Translations under genes and position numbers: made by a program | Shown here: positions 1 through 61,809 of the stretch, piece after piece | Layout: every line of letters begins with the position of its first letter | Numbering within the stretch: position 1 is the first letter of the stretch | The notes under the pieces: generated by a model | Database searches by the model: none | Seen by the model: the letters and a program-made list of their open reading frames with translations, nothing else | Told to the model about the DNA's origin: nothing | DNA from: Octopus vulgaris | Taxonomy: Eukaryota | Assembly (NCBI GenBank): GCA_951406725.2 | Contig: OX597827.1 | Coordinates: forward strand, 54,188,001-54,252,000 | Reading direction: 5' to 3' | DNA: 64,000 bases

Positions 1-132
1 AACAAAAGAAATTTCTGTTATGAGAACTAGAGTGATGGAAAATGCAATGGATATTTAAAGTATCAAGTTTTCTATCCGACAATGGTCAACTGTAATTTCT
101 TCTCTGTTGAAGACATTAATATCTGTGACATA

Positions 133-290
133 CCATAAATCCTTGAGTATAATCCGCACTTTTTTCCCCAAATTTAAAGGTCAAAATCCGTAGTGCATAC
201 TATATATGAGGTTAAAAACGAAAATTATCTTCTAAGCAAAGTCCGAGTCTCTATTTGCTGTCCGGCAATGTTTATTCAGACACATTTAGA
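133..290 (+). mobile_element. Truncated left end of pogo/Tigger-type DNA transposon (same family as 4360-5335)
   Basis: TA + CCATAAATCCTTGAGTATAATCCGCAC terminus; ~140 bp align by eye with 4360-4502. Confidence 0.8.
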
Positions 291-1989
291 AATCAGTAAC
301 CATATTGCTTGTTTAGCTAAGTGGTCCCATGATTTAGAAAATAAGAACTAGAATACAACTGTTAGGTGTCTCACAGACAATAATAGTTTCTTATATTGTC
401 ACAAATCTTCTGATTTATATGAAGGGTGACAGTTGCTTGAATTGACTGCAGTATATTTATGTTTTGTATTTTATAAATGCTCATGGAAACAAAAGGCAAA
501 GTCTAACTTGTTAAGATTTAAACTCAGAAAATATTTAGTGAGACAAAACTGTATTCTGAATGTTATTTGATCTAGTTAAGATAACAGTACTATAGAGGGT
601 AATGAATTCCTGTTTACTCTACAATAGATTTGTTATTGTTTTTGTAAGCTCACAATGTATTTAAATATCTACTGTTAAAATACTGAACTGTACCTCCTCA
701 TATAGTTTATCTTATAGCTAGGCAAACTTAACAAATGAGTTTAGTGGCTTTGGTACAGTAATGGTGCTCCTTTAGCTTGGAGGTTGATTGCATAAGGGTC
801 TTGACACTAATTAAATAACAACAAAGTTTTTTATTTACAACCTATATTGCCAATATGATAGAATATCAAAGAAAAGTGTGCTTGGTGGAACCCATCTTAG
901 TAAGGTGAAGTTTTAGATACAAATTATGAGGGAATATTAATATCTTAAGCTAACAACTGAAAATCAGGTTATACACTCAGTCAGCCTGAATATTACATCA
1001 TCACTGCAGTCATCAAGTTAAAAGGATGCAGAGAGTACTTGCAGTTAATGTTACAATAACAAACAAAAAAAAAATGTAAAATAAAAATAATAAATTTTCC
1101 TAAAATTTGGTAATTCATTTTAAACAACTGTTGAAATATTATTTTCTTTCCATTTCCTAAAAATAAAGAAACATCAAAAATATTCCCTACTCTTGTAATA
1201 TCAACTGATGTTGAAAATATAAACAAATATGTAATTTTATCAAAATTACTAGAGATAAATTCTATCAGTCGTGCTAATTTCATTTGAGATATTTCCAAAA
1301 CCACACACATAAAACGCATGTTGGCTTCCTTCAGTAGCTTAAATACATCAAATATTATAGCATCTCTTCAACCTTTAATAATTCCAATGAGTCTATGTTA
1401 AATAAATAAACATTTACAGTTAGGTAGTATAGTGGTACTTGATAAGGTGAGTGTTTTATATTAAATCATTTATGGGCATTATGATCATTTATCATACCTG
1501 CTGCAACTTTTTTTGACTGTGCCTCTGTGCAAGGCATTTAATTCTACATTACCTCAGTTAATCAAGCAAGAGATTCAGTCCAAGCTTGTCTGAGAAAAAT
1601 GATGGATGATAATGATGATGACAGTGGTGGTGGCGGCTGCTGCCATTGCCGACAAGTGCCACACCCAGAAGATTTCACCTCTTAATGCTACAGAAATGAA
1701 AATTTCATACTTTTGCCTAACTGATATGAGAAAAATTTTAAAACAAATATGTAAGCAATGTACATTTGTGTTTGTACATGCACACGCATTCATATGTACA
1801 TGTGAATATAATATAATATATATATGTGCACACACACACACACACATATACACTTAACACATATACATCAAGAAAACTTGCCCTAACATGTTTATATGTG
1901 ATGAGTTTATAATGGCTAAAATCTTAGGTGAGTATGGTGATGCAAATGTCTCGGTAGATGACAATGAACTTAGTGTGGAGAAAAAGATG

Positions 1990-2219
1990 TTAACCCTTTC
2001 GTTACCAACCCGGCTGAAACCGGCTCTGGCTCTGTAGTACAAATGTCTTCTTTCCATAAGTTTTGAATTAAAATCTTCCTCCAAACCTTAGTCACAATTT
2101 ATGTTCCTAATACTAGCTTAATGATAATGAAGTTATTCTACTAAATTCTTTGTTATATTTAAAATTAATTGAAAGAAACACAGAACATCTCAACAGCAAT
2201 ATGGTAACAAAAGGGTTAA
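1990..2219. mobile_element. piggyBac-type MITE (family 1)
   Basis: TTAA-CCCTTTCGTTACC ... GGTAACAAAAGGG-TTAA: terminal inverted repeats with TTAA target-site duplication. Confidence 0.85.
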
Positions 2220-2579
2220 TTTCTGGAAGAAAAAAATAGGCAACTATCTGGAGCTTGTTAAAACCCATTTTGTAATTCACAGTCAATAATATTAGAATCT
2301 GTTAAGAGATCTTGCCCAAATATTTAAATTATGAAACTACATACATGTGAAGGTGCATGGTCTAGTAGTTAGATCATGGTTTCAATTCCCAGACTGGCCA
2401 GTGCATTGTGTCCTTCAGTAAAACACTTTATTTCTCATAATTGCAATCCATTCAGAGAAAATGTAGTAATGATGATTACTTATACACCAGGAAAACCAGA
2501 TAACTGGCCTTTATGAATCCTGGGACTAGAGACAGTAATGTACAGGGGTCGACATTTACATTTTTATTTTTTTGCTACA

Positions 2580-2762
2580 CACTGCTGGTGGTTAAAAGCA
2601 CCCAACATGCAGTGTAAAGTGGTTGGTGTTAGAAAAGCCTTCAGCCATAGGAACTATGCCAGAACAAACAACAGATTTTGGTGCAGACCCTGGCCTTACT
2701 AGATTCTATGAAACTGTCTGACCCATGCCAGCATGGAAAATGGACGTTAAACAATGGTGATA
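2580..2762 (+). mobile_element. Retroposon fragment with RTE-type 3' tail
   Basis: AAAAGCACCC...GTGGTTGGTGTTAG...ACCCATGCCAGCATGGAAAATGGACGTTAAAC motif repeated many times in the window. Confidence 0.7.
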
Positions 2763-2772
2763 ATACATTTAT

Positions 2773-2952
2773 CAGGCATGGTACCAGGAATTTTTCGAAG
2801 GGAGGGCACAAGGTTAGAAGGGAATACAATTCCAGGAGAAAAGGACACAATAACATTATTTAGAAGGGCACACTTCTTTTCTTGAGGGGGCTCACATGCT
2901 CTTCACCCCCCCCCCCACCTCACCACCACCACCACACCAGGATCTGCCTCTG
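2773..2952. mobile_element. Degenerate GC-rich MITE (CAGGGGCGGATCCAGG-like termini)
   Basis: CAGGCATGGTACCAGG ... GATCTGCCTCTG imperfect TIRs around G/C runs; no clear TSD. Confidence 0.4.
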
Positions 2953-4063
2953 TTTATATATGTCTACCAACTTTTTCAAGCATTACAGAGGTGAACTGTA
3001 TGGATTCTGGAATTTAGTATGGTGCTTATTATTTCTGTCTCAATTCAGCTCTTCATTTGTTCTATTTTGTTAACTATAACAATAATTTGCATGTTCACTT
3101 TCAACTGAATTGAGTTGATGTGTGTGTACATAGTTCCACAATTTATAAACCTAGGCAAGATTCTCTTGGCAGTTGTAATAAATATAATCAACTCTTAATT
3201 ACAAATGCGACTTACAAACTGTAACTCACAATGGTTGATATCTTGCTTTTGCAATGACTTCATATTCTGGAATGAAAATAAAACTCAAGGCTTTGTTTTA
3301 CTTCCATTAAGCTTAACTGTTGTTAAAAGAAGGCTTAGAAAAGGATTAACAGGAATATAACACAATCCAAGAACTTAATCTTTAATGCTGTAACAGTTTA
3401 GATTTAAATAATTCAACTGCTTTTGAGCATTTTTTTTTAAAGTTGATGTAATTTACTAGTTCTCTCCACCAAATTTCAGGCCTTGTGCCTCTGTTAGAAA
3501 TCAATATTTTTAAAATATTGTGTGTGTATGTCAAGTTTTAAGATTGCATAGATAAAATCAAAGCTCTCTTCAGTTTTACATTCATTTGTCATGCCTACAT
3601 GGATATGATGTGTAAAGTTAAGGAATAAATGTTTTTACAGCTGAATGATACTCATAATGCTCTTTGATATATCTTTGCAATAGTGTGTGTATGTACGCAC
3701 ACACACACTGCTAAAACAAACACATATACTGGTTTATTATTGTCCCCATTTTGTCCCAGATAACGGTTGAGAAAGCTTGACTGCTATGGAAGTTGAATGT
3801 AATTTGAAATAATTTTGCAATAAAGTAATACAGAAAAAAAGCTCATATTTATTTCATACTATAAGATAATGTTATTGAAGTTTTAGAAGAAACTTAGAAC
3901 TATTTGCCTCAAAATGAAGCAGCAATGTGGTAATTAATTCTGTAACTGATTTGTTTTACTGCTTATCTTATTAAACTTCGGTATAAGGTTGAAAATTAGC
4001 CAAATCAAATTATTGAAATGGGTTATTTACTTATTTGTTTTAATTCTTTATTATTATTATTAT

Positions 4064-4262
4064 GGTGGCAAACTGGCAGAATAATTAGCACGCTGGGCGA
4101 AATGCTTAGCAGTATTTCATCTGTCGTTAGGTTTTGAGTGCGAATGCTGCTGAGGTTGACTTTGCCTTTCATCCTTTCGGGGTCGATAAAATTAGAACCA
4201 GTTACATACTGGGGTTGATGTAATCAACTTAATCCTTCCCCACAAATTTGAAAGGATTATTG
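4064..4262 (+). mobile_element. tRNA-derived SINE with Meta-like central domain
   Basis: TGGCAGAATAATTAGCAC head; GTTGACTTTGCCTTTCATCCTTTCGGGGTCGATAAA core; (ATT/ATC)n tail; multiple copies in window. Confidence 0.8.
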
Positions 4263-4359
4263 ATATTATCATTATCATCATCATCAACATTATTTTCCAA
4301 TTGATTTGCATTTTATTTCATCTTTCAACTGGGTCTCAACCAGAGCCTTAAGGCACTTA

Positions 4360-5335
4360 GTGTAAATCCTCGAGTATAATGTATAATCCACATTTTTTCC
4401 CCAAAATTTAAAGGTCAGAATCCCTAGTGCATATTATATACTAGGTTAAAAATGAAAAATATTTTCTAAGCAATGTCCAAGTCTCTCTTTGCTGTCTGGC
4501 AATTTGTGATGCATTTTGTGATGTCAGGCGCGAAAATACCTTAAGCTAAGCCTGAAAGCAATGATGTCGTAAAAGAATCACCCATAACTTGCAGTAAACA
4601 ACATTTATTAAATTAAAAGTATTCAGATCACAGAATAACATGTAACAAAAACAATTTGCAAACATATTTACATTCCCATATAACAATTAAGAACATCACC
4701 ATTATTGTATTACGCATGCACAGAAGCGTTTTTTCGACTAGGTGCAGCTGGCTTAATTACGCACAAATTGTGCTTAATAGTTTAGTGCTAAATAGTTCGT
4801 CCTGCTGTTTGTATTGGCAATTTGCATCGCATCATTACTGTGACAAACAATAGATACTTAATTGAATACAAGTATTAAATGTTTGAACTACTGTGGGTAT
4901 TTACTAGGGGTTTTATAAATGGGACTTAAACCTGTACATTAATCTCCAATAAAACATTTTATACATTACATGCCCATAAAATGCCTCATAGATCTTATTC
5001 AGCTATGTTTAAATTTGAAGTTATATCATATGCTGAAGAGCATGGTAATAGGGCCGCCGGAAGTAAATTTGATGTTGATGAAAGCAATGCCAGGTTATGG
5101 AGAAGAAATAAAGATGAAATTAAACAGATACCAAAGATAAAGAAGGCAAGAAGGCAGTAATAAAGGATGTTACCGTATACAATTTTACAAACCAAGGACG
5201 TTATATAGACCTCCTTGACTCAAGTTAGAGAAGGGGTGCATATTATACACAAGGTTTAGATTTTTCAGAGGTACAGCCCCCTAAAAATTCTCTGCGTATT
5301 ACACTCAAGTGCAGACTATACTCAAGGATTTACGG
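4360..5335 (+). mobile_element. Non-autonomous pogo-type (Tc1/mariner superfamily) DNA transposon
   Basis: TIRs GTAAATCCTCGAGTATA ... TATACTCAAGGATTTACGG, flanked by TA; internal transposase N-terminal remnant. Confidence 0.85.
4981..5160 (+). CDS. 59-aa mini-ORF, Brinker-type HTH DNA-binding domain of a pogo transposase (transposon-derived; expression unknown)
   Basis: Hand translation MPHRSYSAMFKFEVISYAEEHGNRAAGSKFDVDESNARLWRRNKDEIKQIPKIKKARRQ*; RSYxxxFKxxVxxYAE..N..A...F.V.E.N.R.WR matches the BrkDBD of POGK-like transposases. Confidence 0.7.
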   Translation: MPHRSYSAMFKFEVISYAEEHGNRAAGSKFDVDESNARLWRRNKDEIKQIPKIKKARRQ

Positions 5336-6329
5336 TATATATTAGATGGAGAGAATCTTCTCGAGAATGTGAGTGGTTGATGTCAACAATTTTTTGAGTC
5401 ACAAAGATGGCTGGTTTCCTAGGGATCTGGTCAAAAGATTTGTCAATACCTTGCCTGTAGTAGAAAGGATTAGTATTATTACTCAAGACCTCATAAAGAG
5501 TGGGTTATTTACTGCGTCTTTTTTCTTCTAGTTATTGCAAATAGTAGTCATTATTTATAAAGATAAAATAACTTCAACATCATCTACCCAATGAAAAGTA
5601 CTCTATGCTAACTTACACATGGTAAAATCTAACCTTTGAAAACAGTAAGCTTTATGAAAATGTCAAGCCATTTTCTGGAACATTTTGTGTGAAGGAGTTT
5701 TCAGTACAGTGTATATAGTTGTATCAATACTGGAAAAAAAAATTTATTTTAGTTATTATCAAAAATTTTAAGTTATCCATTCCTTTTGTAATAAATTTCA
5801 AGTTATGATAAGAGTACTGGTAGCTAAGTTCTTAATTTAGTTAATTAATGATTCAATACATAGATCCTAAATTAGACAATTCAGGAATAGGCACTATACT
5901 ATGGTGCCATTGTGCAAACTTTCTTCTGTTTTATATCATAGTCCATTCATGGGTTATGGCCTGTGTCAGGATGAGGTTGCTATGGCAGACCAGCTCTAAG
6001 AAATCGGGCAACTGTTTGAATGTTTATAACTACCTGAGCCAAGCTAGCATGTCGAAATATTTTAATAAATTTTATCGTTGCCTCTTATTTTCTATTTACC
6101 TTTTTAAAATGCTTAAAATATTTTATTGTAACATTTGGTTCACAACTGATTTAGAGAAGTAAAGCTTTGATATAGTCAAAGTATTTTGATTATGTTCATG
6201 ATGACAATATGTCAGTTCTATTTGTGTCAGTTGTGCAGTTAACCCCTCTTTTTTTTTATTAGTTATATTAATGTGTAAGGCTTTATGATAGAGCAGCTCT
6301 TGACTTCAGTAAATAATTCATTCTGGCTT

Positions 6330-6402
6330 CCCAGATCCCCGGTCGAACCGTCCAACCCATGCTAGCATGGAGAACAGACGTTAAACGATGATGATGATGA
6401 TG
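6330..6402 (+). mobile_element. Short, young 5'-truncated RTE-type 3' tail
   Basis: GGTCGAACCGTCCAACCCATGCTAGCATGGAGAACAGACGTTAAACG(ATG)n; CpGs retained. Confidence 0.75.
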
Positions 6403-6736
6403 AATGGGATTATTTCATTATTTTGAACTGAAAAGCAGTGTAATCCAGACAATTTGTAGCAAGGACTGAAGTATTGATTGACTGATACATTAAATGGTTG
6501 AATTCAGTTAAAGAATTGGAAAGCCTATGGATAAAAAAAAAAATTAGAAACCCTTAATGATAATTAGATTATTCAGTAGGGCTACATGTGAACTACTTCA
6601 ATATTTATGACAGGTCAAAAACATAACAGATTTTCTTTTTTGATTTCCAAATTATCCCTAAAAAAAATCAAACTCTGACATGAGAATTTAATGCTCTTTT
6701 GCAGTGTAAATTATATTTTTTAAACTTACTTTACAG

Positions 6737-6839
6737 ATTTGTTTTTAATGTAATAATGTATATTTGTTTAAACTATTTTCTTTTTTCCTTTTTCAGGTAA
6801 GTGACTGTGTTTTTGAGTGCTTTTGATATCTTGGTAAGT
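6737..6839 (+). promoter_or_regulatory. Candidate recursive splice site (AG|GT at 6796/6797) with 37-nt cryptic RS-exon 6797-6833
   Basis: ttttcttttttcctttttCAG|GTAAGT; 58-nt AG-free zone; second donor TTG|GTAAGT at 6834. Confidence 0.65.
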
Positions 6840-59903: not shown

Positions 59904-60458
59904 TATAAATTGAGTGGAAATCAATCTGGTGAATGTGTTAGTTAATAAGGCATAAGGACAAAATGATTCTCCCCAGACACAACAAAATTAGCATTTATGT
60001 TATAATTCTTCTGAGTTATTACATGCTCTTATCCCAACCCCTGCTAAACAACTTTTCACTCCTTTTGTTATATGTTTTGTATTGTATGCATGGGCTCACA
60101 TAGCTAATATAAAAAGGATTTTTATTATTGTTATTGTTGTTATTTTCCATGTTTTCTTAATTTTTTAAAAATCAATATTTGCACATGTATTTGTAAATAA
60201 TAGTAAAGAGAAAGATAAATAAATAACAAGACATTTTAAAATGTTAATTAGATAGATGTGTTTACATATGACTGATAAAAAGGCTTTGTTTAAGATTATA
60301 TGGTTAGATTAATACTGAGAGTTTATGTAGCATAAAAGTATTTTCTAAAGCTATATGCAGTGCAGCAAGTGCTATAGATTGTTTATACATCAGAGTTATT
60401 ATTTACAGCTAAATGAAAGAATTACACAGCTAGTTTAGTAATGTAATAGATTAAACAG

Positions 60459-60585
60459 ATTTTTAAAAATATGTTTAATACCTGATTTATATTCAATAAT
60501 TATTACTGTTATAAAATTTTAATTTTTTTTTTCTCTCTACTTTTAGGTAAGCAGTCCCATAATTTCTTCTGGTTGTATGGTAATG
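60459..60585 (+). promoter_or_regulatory. Candidate recursive splice site (AG|GT at 60546/60547) with 33-nt cryptic exon 60547-60579
   Basis: ttttttttttctctctactttTAG|GTAAGC; 86-nt AG-free zone; second donor ATG|GTAATG at 60580. Confidence 0.6.
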
Positions 60586-61809
60586 TATCAAAATATCTTT
60601 TAAGTACTTGGTTGTTATTTTATTATAAATTAAGAATTTTTAACAATTCACATTAATTCTAGATGGTAGAACTGCTAATTCCTTTGATACAAAATACTTT
60701 GTTAGGATTTGTTGCACACAATTCATTGTGCTGTTTTATGTTTTGAGTTGAAGTCTTTCCCAGGTCATCTTTGCTTTTCATCATTCTGAATTATTATACC
60801 TAATCAAAGCACAATGACTGAAAAATAAAAGAATCATTCTTGCTAGTCAATTTCTTTTACTTAGCTGTGTTAAAAGCACAACGTATACATATTTATGAAG
60901 GTTGTGTTAATACACACATATACACGTCTCTCTTTCGAAATATAAGTATTATACATATCATTATCATCATCATTTTAACACTCTCTCTTTTCCATGCTTG
61001 CATGGGCCGATGAAGTGTGTTGAGTCAGATTTTCGATGTGTTGATTCTCTTCCTGTTGTCAACTATCTCACCTGCTTCCAAGTAAGGTAACATCTCTCCA
61101 TGATCGGAGACATTGAAATCACAGGACACAGCTCTCATGACAGTTACAAACATCAAGGCAAGGAAACAGTAACACACACACACACACACATATATTTACA
61201 CACACACGCATACTCAGCAGGCTTCTTTCAGTTTCTGTCTGCCAAATCCACTTACAAGGTTTTGCTCAACATTTGTATACATATATGAATACAGTCTATG
61301 ACAGTAGAATAAGTACCTGCAAGCCAAATGTATGACACCATTCCAACTAATTCATTTCATTTTCTCTAATATATGTGATTTCTGGTTAGAGTCAATTCCC
61401 TGGTGAAGGATAGGCTCCACTAGATCAACTTACTCATGACATGATTGAAATATATTGTTGATATACATTATAGAATGAGGTTAATAATCAGAGAAATGAT
61501 CATTTTAGTGTTAATAACTTTTTATATTTACTTTATAAAATCACCGTGTTTTTCATGTTCCTGGCAAAAACAAAACATGGATATACTTTATAATAGCTAC
61601 AATCACCTTCTATGGAACCCATAGAGTTAATCAAACAACAATACATTGTTTGAGATCAATTTTCTAATGTTCACAATGGAAAAACTGATAAAAGTTTTCT
61701 CTAAATACCATACTGCTCCACACACGGTCAATCACTCCCTGGTGATGTGAAAGTACTGGTTGAAACAAAACCTATGAATTGCATGTAGATGTTTGATTTA
61801 CTATATTGG

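Follow-up and report, generated by a model that had tools for sequence, protein, structure and literature searches.

Position 60547 of a 64,000-nucleotide stretch of Octopus vulgaris DNA (hereafter the window) is an acceptor to which exon 2 of an ADAM12-like gene is joined, well inside intron 2 of that gene, and we consider it likely that the site serves as the second of two ‘ratchet points’ for stepwise removal of the intron; that the donor regenerated by the join is itself spliced again is a step we infer from Drosophila. The window corresponds to G000:C14:54188001-54252000 of the 2.8-Gb O. vulgaris assembly, which the stretch matches once, and 200 kb were fetched on either side of it to scan for exons.

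The host gene was recognised from a zinc-metalloprotease exon 59 kb downstream of the window, identical to part of the ADAM12-like O. vulgaris protein P0002. Mapping of P0002 to the locus places every coding exon on the plus strand, and puts the whole window inside intron 2, a phase 0 intron of 170,235 nt that 6797 and 60547 divide into segments of 87,190, 53,750 and 29,295 nt. Intron 1 measures about 84.6 kb, and each of the 18 introns after intron 2 is shorter than 9 kb. No host exon was found among the listed open reading frames of the window, and a Pfam propeptide search of the assembly gave four matches, all away from the ADAM12-like gene. We observed, too, that the first bases of exon 2 (L033:9485, window coordinate -80515) are GT, preceded by a strong AAG acceptor, which means that removal of intron 1 regenerates a weak donor (GTATAG), and that P0006, an O. 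bimaculoides gene model, has a different N-terminus joined to exon 3, which reflects either an alternative first exon or an error of prediction brought about by the long introns.

The features on which the argument draws are the following; those at 6775-6839 and 60459-60544, and the candidate branch points, were read from the sequence.

1-64000, plus strand: the window, from the middle of the ADAM12-like intron 2 (mapping of P0002).
G000:C14:54107606 and G000:C14:54277842 (window coordinate 89842), plus strand: end of exon 2 and start of exon 3.
6775-6839, plus strand: candidate ratchet point 1, with pyrimidine tract, CAG|GTAAGT at 6797, a 37-nt exon containing a stop, and donor TTG|GTAAGT.
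60459-60544, plus strand: AG-free zone with its pyrimidine tract (about 60523-60544).
A at -25, -62 and -69, plus strand: YTRAY-like candidate branch points.
60545-60552, plus strand: putative ratchet point 2, with acceptor AG (60545-60546) and donor GTAAGC (60547-60552), from the sequence and the exon 2 junction in runs X8 and X18.
60547-60579, plus strand: cryptic 33-nt RS-exon, which reads VSSPIISSGCM without a stop in the host frame.
60580-60585, plus strand: weak donor ATG|GTAATG, likely to act in exon definition and unspliced in both contigs.
60547-61200, plus strand: reach of the spliced contigs as estimated from lengths of 680 and 640 nt (only 60545-60710 aligned).

Every feature to which the sequence-only reading had drawn attention is present where it was placed. 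The AG-free zone covers 86 bases, from the previous AG (60457-60458) to the acceptor AG; 20 of the 22 bases in the tract are pyrimidines, as are 19 of the 20 immediately beside TAG; acceptor and donor are fused as TAG|GTAAGC at 60546|60547; and a further donor, ATG|GTAATG, stands at 60579|60580, 33 nt past 60547. Two frames of the intervening exon had been called open, and both are (frame 0, VSSPIISSGCM; frame 2, KQSHNFFWLY; frame 1 begins with a stop), the second being irrelevant to the ADAM12-like gene. Once exon 2 is joined to 60547 the donor becomes GAG|GTAAGC, which matches the consensus at seven of nine positions against five of nine for the downstream exon donor, and scores 7.3 bits against 1.0 bit on a generic matrix. 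Length of the AG-free zone was also tried as a marker of ratchet points and rejected, the medians being 50 nt at 52 motif sites and 52 nt at 30 controls (P = 0.64).

None of the sequencing runs is recorded as RNA and eight were guessed to be RNA; X8, X18 and X21 were examined from among these, together with the DNA run X13, over positions 60260-60710. X8, from organism A and without differences from the window, gives one contig on 60545-60710 (depth 3.3), preceded by 23 loose letters, and X18 (organism D, from another study, depth 8.85) likewise gives one contig on these positions, led by the same 23 letters. The genomic bases at that place are different, and within the fetched loci these letters have a single match, at bases -25 to -3 of exon 2; the AG with which exon 2 closes is common to the exon end and the acceptor. 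The junction so formed spans 140,940 nt between canonical sites, and is present in two of the three RNA-labelled runs, from two species and two studies. Both contigs run unspliced through the donor at 60580 and on into the intron, with intron cover zero upstream of the site and present downstream in X8 and X18 alike (451 nt examined, contig depth flat).

The join is not genomic, since the DNA run of organism D (X13) continues over the site without a break and the stretch has a single match in the assembly; and although the RNA label is a guess, a splice-site join absent from DNA is itself a mark of spliced RNA. The evidence consists of one low-depth contig per run rather than of reads, to which the three-offset junction rule of Duff et al. 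is inapplicable, and a junction between exon 2 and 60547 looks identical with or without use of 6797. By length, the contigs extend to around 61160-61200 and stop at a CA repeat, close to which the DNA contigs also end (61159), so these ends are uninformative on the RNA 3' end. The exon stub of 25 letters, together with five that are common to the exon 2 donor and the site, amounts to 30, the assembly word being 31, and a stub of this length suggests that in both libraries the path forks to RNA that is either unspliced or 6797-spliced. In X21 (organism A, from the same study as X8, ADAM12 expression uncontrolled) there was no junction, and only a poor 37-nt match at 60342-60378. Absence of splicing to 60547 was what the sequence-only reading had named as speaking against its claim of a ratchet point; the splicing is present in two RNA-labelled runs, X8 and X18, and lends that claim support.

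Synthesised with what is known from flies, these observations lead us to suggest how the site might work. The weak donor 33 nt on would allow the site to be defined as an exon; the joining of exon 2 to 60547 would then regenerate the strong donor GAG|GTAAGC, which would out-compete ATG|GTAATG and be spliced to exon 3, such that zero bases of the 33-nt exon enter the mRNA. The whole route would thus run from exon 2 to 6797 (87 kb), on to 60547 (54 kb) and from there to exon 3 (29 kb). In Drosophila mutants, according to the available text of PMC8605326, it is donor competition that decides whether an RS-exon is skipped. Exon 2 joined to 60547, with 60580 unspliced, is the first intermediate to be expected of recursive splicing; contigs of this kind cannot reveal the second step.

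The site is retained in related organisms, and is used in organism D through the same junction. Between 60485 and 60635 no difference is listed for organisms B, C and E, whose contigs show 29 differences in about 1,200 nt and 16 in about 700 nt. Over the 451 nt organism D has 17 differences, plus 7 gap letters; as far as listed, its AG|GTAAGC core is kept, as is the donor downstream, and the candidate branch points at -25 and -62 are altered; the sole listed change in the 33-nt exon, at 60554, turns Ser3 into Ile. At one listed change in 33 nt against 17 in 451 for the whole stretch, the rates are about equal, on small numbers, and by the listed differences the exon is not more conserved than its flanks in organism D. 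The difference tables are partial (13 of 17 listed for X13, 4 of 7 for X18), and the DNA run X14 of organism D has a gap at 60565-60615 that X13 covers. With relatives only 2-4% apart and partial tables, presence of the site in four other organisms is a comparison of low power, which shows retention and not strong constraint.

Within the window, YAG|GTRAG occurs 12 times on the two strands together, and a strong tract (19 of 20) precedes it only at 6797 and 60547, both on the plus strand; the other ten have 2 to 10 pyrimidines. The regenerated donor at 6797 is perfect. Across intron 2, GTRAG follows 2 of 113 sense acceptors with at least 16 pyrimidines in 20 (0.19 expected, P = 0.016), compared with 0 of 81 in antisense; at a cut-off of 18/20, picked after the sites had been seen, it follows 2 of 12 (P = 2e-4). 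No site satisfying the strict rule was found in intron 1, in the remainder of the gene or in either flank, and intron 1, at 84.6 kb, indicates that introns of that size can do without one. A relaxed rule gives nine sense sites against one antisense in introns 1 and 2, one of the nine being the acceptor of exon 2 itself. Six weaker sense AG|GT sites were also noted in these introns (L030-L041, L004), at window coordinates -108719, -84754, -83626, -39017, -10210 and 86001; that at -39017 would roughly halve the 87-kb segment.

The motif is in excess throughout the genome. A pattern of 19 pyrimidines, AG and GTAAGY has 52 sites in the assembly, 47 of them GTAAGT; 6797 is one of the 52, and 60547 itself lies outside this strict pattern by one purine. 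The control GTAA[ACT]T, in the same context, has 38 sites, giving an expectation of 7.9 for GTAAGT against the 47 seen (P = 2e-15), an excess of about six-fold; without repeat copies, the figure is 42 of 79 (P = 4e-13). A broken-AG control gave 57 matches and an expectation of 12.7 against the same 47; many of its matches have one common ending and resemble copies of a second repeat family. A donor scoring at least 4 stands 15-100 nt downstream of 14 of the 52 sites, compared with one of 30 controls (these being the 30 fetched of the 38 GTAA[ACT]T sites) and 6.7% of background windows. A single repeat accounts for five of the 52, and some of the candidates may be ordinary exons.

Six pairs of these sites lie within 1 Mb of each other, all six on the same strand, where 0.95 pairs would be expected under uniform placement; of two paired regions fetched, that on C18 yielded one further same-strand site and that on C20 none extra. 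The same-strand clusters (C18:39832943, 39871999 and 39974981; C13:56.68-57.57 Mb; C18:22.90-23.13 Mb; C20:68.16-68.36 Mb) probably lie inside very long genes. At C18 39.8-40.0 Mb there are 160 strong acceptors on the plus strand and 79 on the minus strand. A dispersed repeat was also observed (L069, L071, L076, L084 and L089, with control L112), made up of a pyrimidine tract and TAG|GTAAGT, most copies having a weak donor about 31 nt on; inserted in sense orientation, such a repeat could act as a seed for new ratchet points. Recursive splicing is, in our judgement, quite probably a general feature of long introns in the octopus.

The sequence-only reading went one step further, holding that the site could switch between zero-length recursive use and inclusion of the 33 nt as a coding micro-exon. 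The first part of this is upheld by the junction at 60547; the second finds no counterpart in the contigs or in three protein records, and the exon donor is weak. Frame 0 of the exon matches the phase 0 intron, so that with the exon included the prodomain would gain 11 in-frame residues after E68, and a recursive site that doubles as a regulated micro-exon, lengthening the ADAM12 prodomain in some cells, would accord with several observations: the exon is 33 nt long and open in phase 0, no indel is listed in it for organisms B-E, the insert would fall in a predicted loop (pLDDT 67-75 for residues 51-90, in a poor model with a mean of 33), and in the available text of PMC8605326 Ubx-m1 and msi of Drosophila are included even though their exon donors are weaker. 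Against this, no joint or loose end at 60579 is listed in X8, X18 or X21, as contigs, which drop rare forms; and the insert is absent from each of the three records whose protein crosses the exon 2/3 junction (P0002, P0003 and P0004, gene models that pass directly from exon 2 to exon 3; P0005-P0007, which do not span it, were excluded from the count). Shorter proteins spanning that junction gave 29 candidates, none significant, and a profile-free search with exon 2 found P0002 only, plus the spurious repeat protein P0010. A stop-free exon with a length divisible by three has a chance of about 0.19, the RS-exon lengths scored genome-wide are multiples of three in 5 of 19 cases, and, in contrast to the ultraconserved Ubx-m1, the exon has a residue changed in organism D. 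The exon is probably skipped rather than coding; a recursive site with a micro-exon function we find improbable, as we do its regulated inclusion and the wider proposal of fly-type recursive splicing throughout octopod genomes combined with dual use of 60547, the 11-residue exon being switched in by tissue or stage. In practical terms, an accidentally included 33-nt exon would leave the frame intact, in contrast to the 37-nt exon at 6797, which breaks it.

The contigs might instead mark the start, at 60547, of an alternative last exon or of a dead-end product, the RNA being polyadenylated or degraded in the intron; a last exon of this kind would encode 68 + 18 residues, ending VSSPIISSGCMVMYQNIF. 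The contigs give the first joint and read-through only, their cover (zero upstream, present downstream) is like that of a terminal exon, and AATAAA at 60824 is followed by eight more A[AT]TAAA hexamers up to 63505. Both contigs, however, extend by length more than 300 nt past 60824 and end at the repeat where DNA contigs end too; a near-consensus donor at the first base, superfluous in a last exon, is found here, at 6797 and in the genome-wide excess; and the short form is represented by none of five protein cluster members. We regard a last exon or dead-end product as unlikely. Noise splicing to a chance motif in A+T-rich DNA might be entertained on the grounds that pyrimidine runs before AG are frequent (113 in sense orientation in intron 2) and that contig depth is low, but the identical junction in two species and two studies, and a motif excess of about six-fold with downstream donors, make it scarcely credible, and the junction in X8 and X18 largely refutes it.

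The Drosophila gene kuz is ADAM10-like, and belongs to a different subfamily from ADAM12. As far as the available accounts of it go, kuz and the octopus ADAM12-like gene are alike in that each is an ADAM gene and has two such sites within a single long intron. More widely, the ratchet points of Drosophila (kuz RP1/RP2, Bx, Ubx-RP and luna; 10.1101/006163, PMC8605326, PMC6110457), as described in the accessible parts of these sources, have in common with 60547 a fused AG|GT in a long intron, a strong regenerated donor, a short exon with a weaker donor and a junction with the upstream exon. Several marks of the Drosophila type are present at 60547: the site is fused and on the sense strand, it is joined to exon 2, the exon donor is the weaker one, and relatives have it too (at low power). 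The octopus differs in being a mollusc with a 2.8-Gb genome, in which the first joint alone has been seen; its intron of 170 kb and first segment of 87 kb exceed the fly maxima of 132,736 and 63,580 bp given in the part of the Duff preprint available (10.1101/006163), and its RS-exon preserves the frame whereas cryptic RS-exons in the fly, in the accounts at hand, are generally out of frame. The expressed RS-microexons of Drosophila (Ubx m1/m2, sm and msi, in the available text of PMC8605326) are, like the 33-nt exon, short, divisible by three, donor-started and open in the host frame; unlike them, it has a very weak donor, is not ultraconserved, and showed no inclusion in three runs and three records.

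In vertebrates, RS-exons of long neuronal genes (Sibley 2015 and Blazquez 2018, as cited in the available text of PMC8605326) are described as combining exon definition with subsequent donor competition in very long introns, as proposed here; fully suppressed mammalian sites cited there number only nine, compared with an octopus excess of about 35-40 under the strict pattern alone. The human ADAM12 gene has five rows among the candidates in the very long supplementary table of PMC6110456 (12 of its 15 files), which we did not use as support. Searches of the accessible PMC6110457 supplements for Meltrin, kuz and CG7649 gave no match, and are uninformative since even kuz was unmatched. A sense-strand excess of ratchet motifs in insect and sea urchin introns longer than 50 kb, computed without RNA, is reported in the available text of PMC2773006, and intron 2 of the octopus gene shares this excess of fused motifs on the sense strand; the 13 species named there include no mollusc. 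RNA-supported recursive splicing has been reported in Drosophila and vertebrates, and motif enrichment in other insects and the sea urchin. Our search, which left most subscription journals outside its reach, found no report of recursive splicing for octopus, cephalopod, squid, mollusc, lophotrochozoan or annelid.

The mechanism is already known; what is new here is a mollusc case, with its junction in two species. The 52 genome-wide candidates form a list that is directly testable with total-RNA data. The octopus result is what the invertebrate trend in the available text of PMC2773006 predicts, and it also touches on the proposal made there that large, repeat-rich genomes lose ratchet points, in that the 2.8-Gb octopus genome retains an excess of them. 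Finally, the finding is relevant to the question of whether long introns have been removed stepwise since early in bilaterian history.
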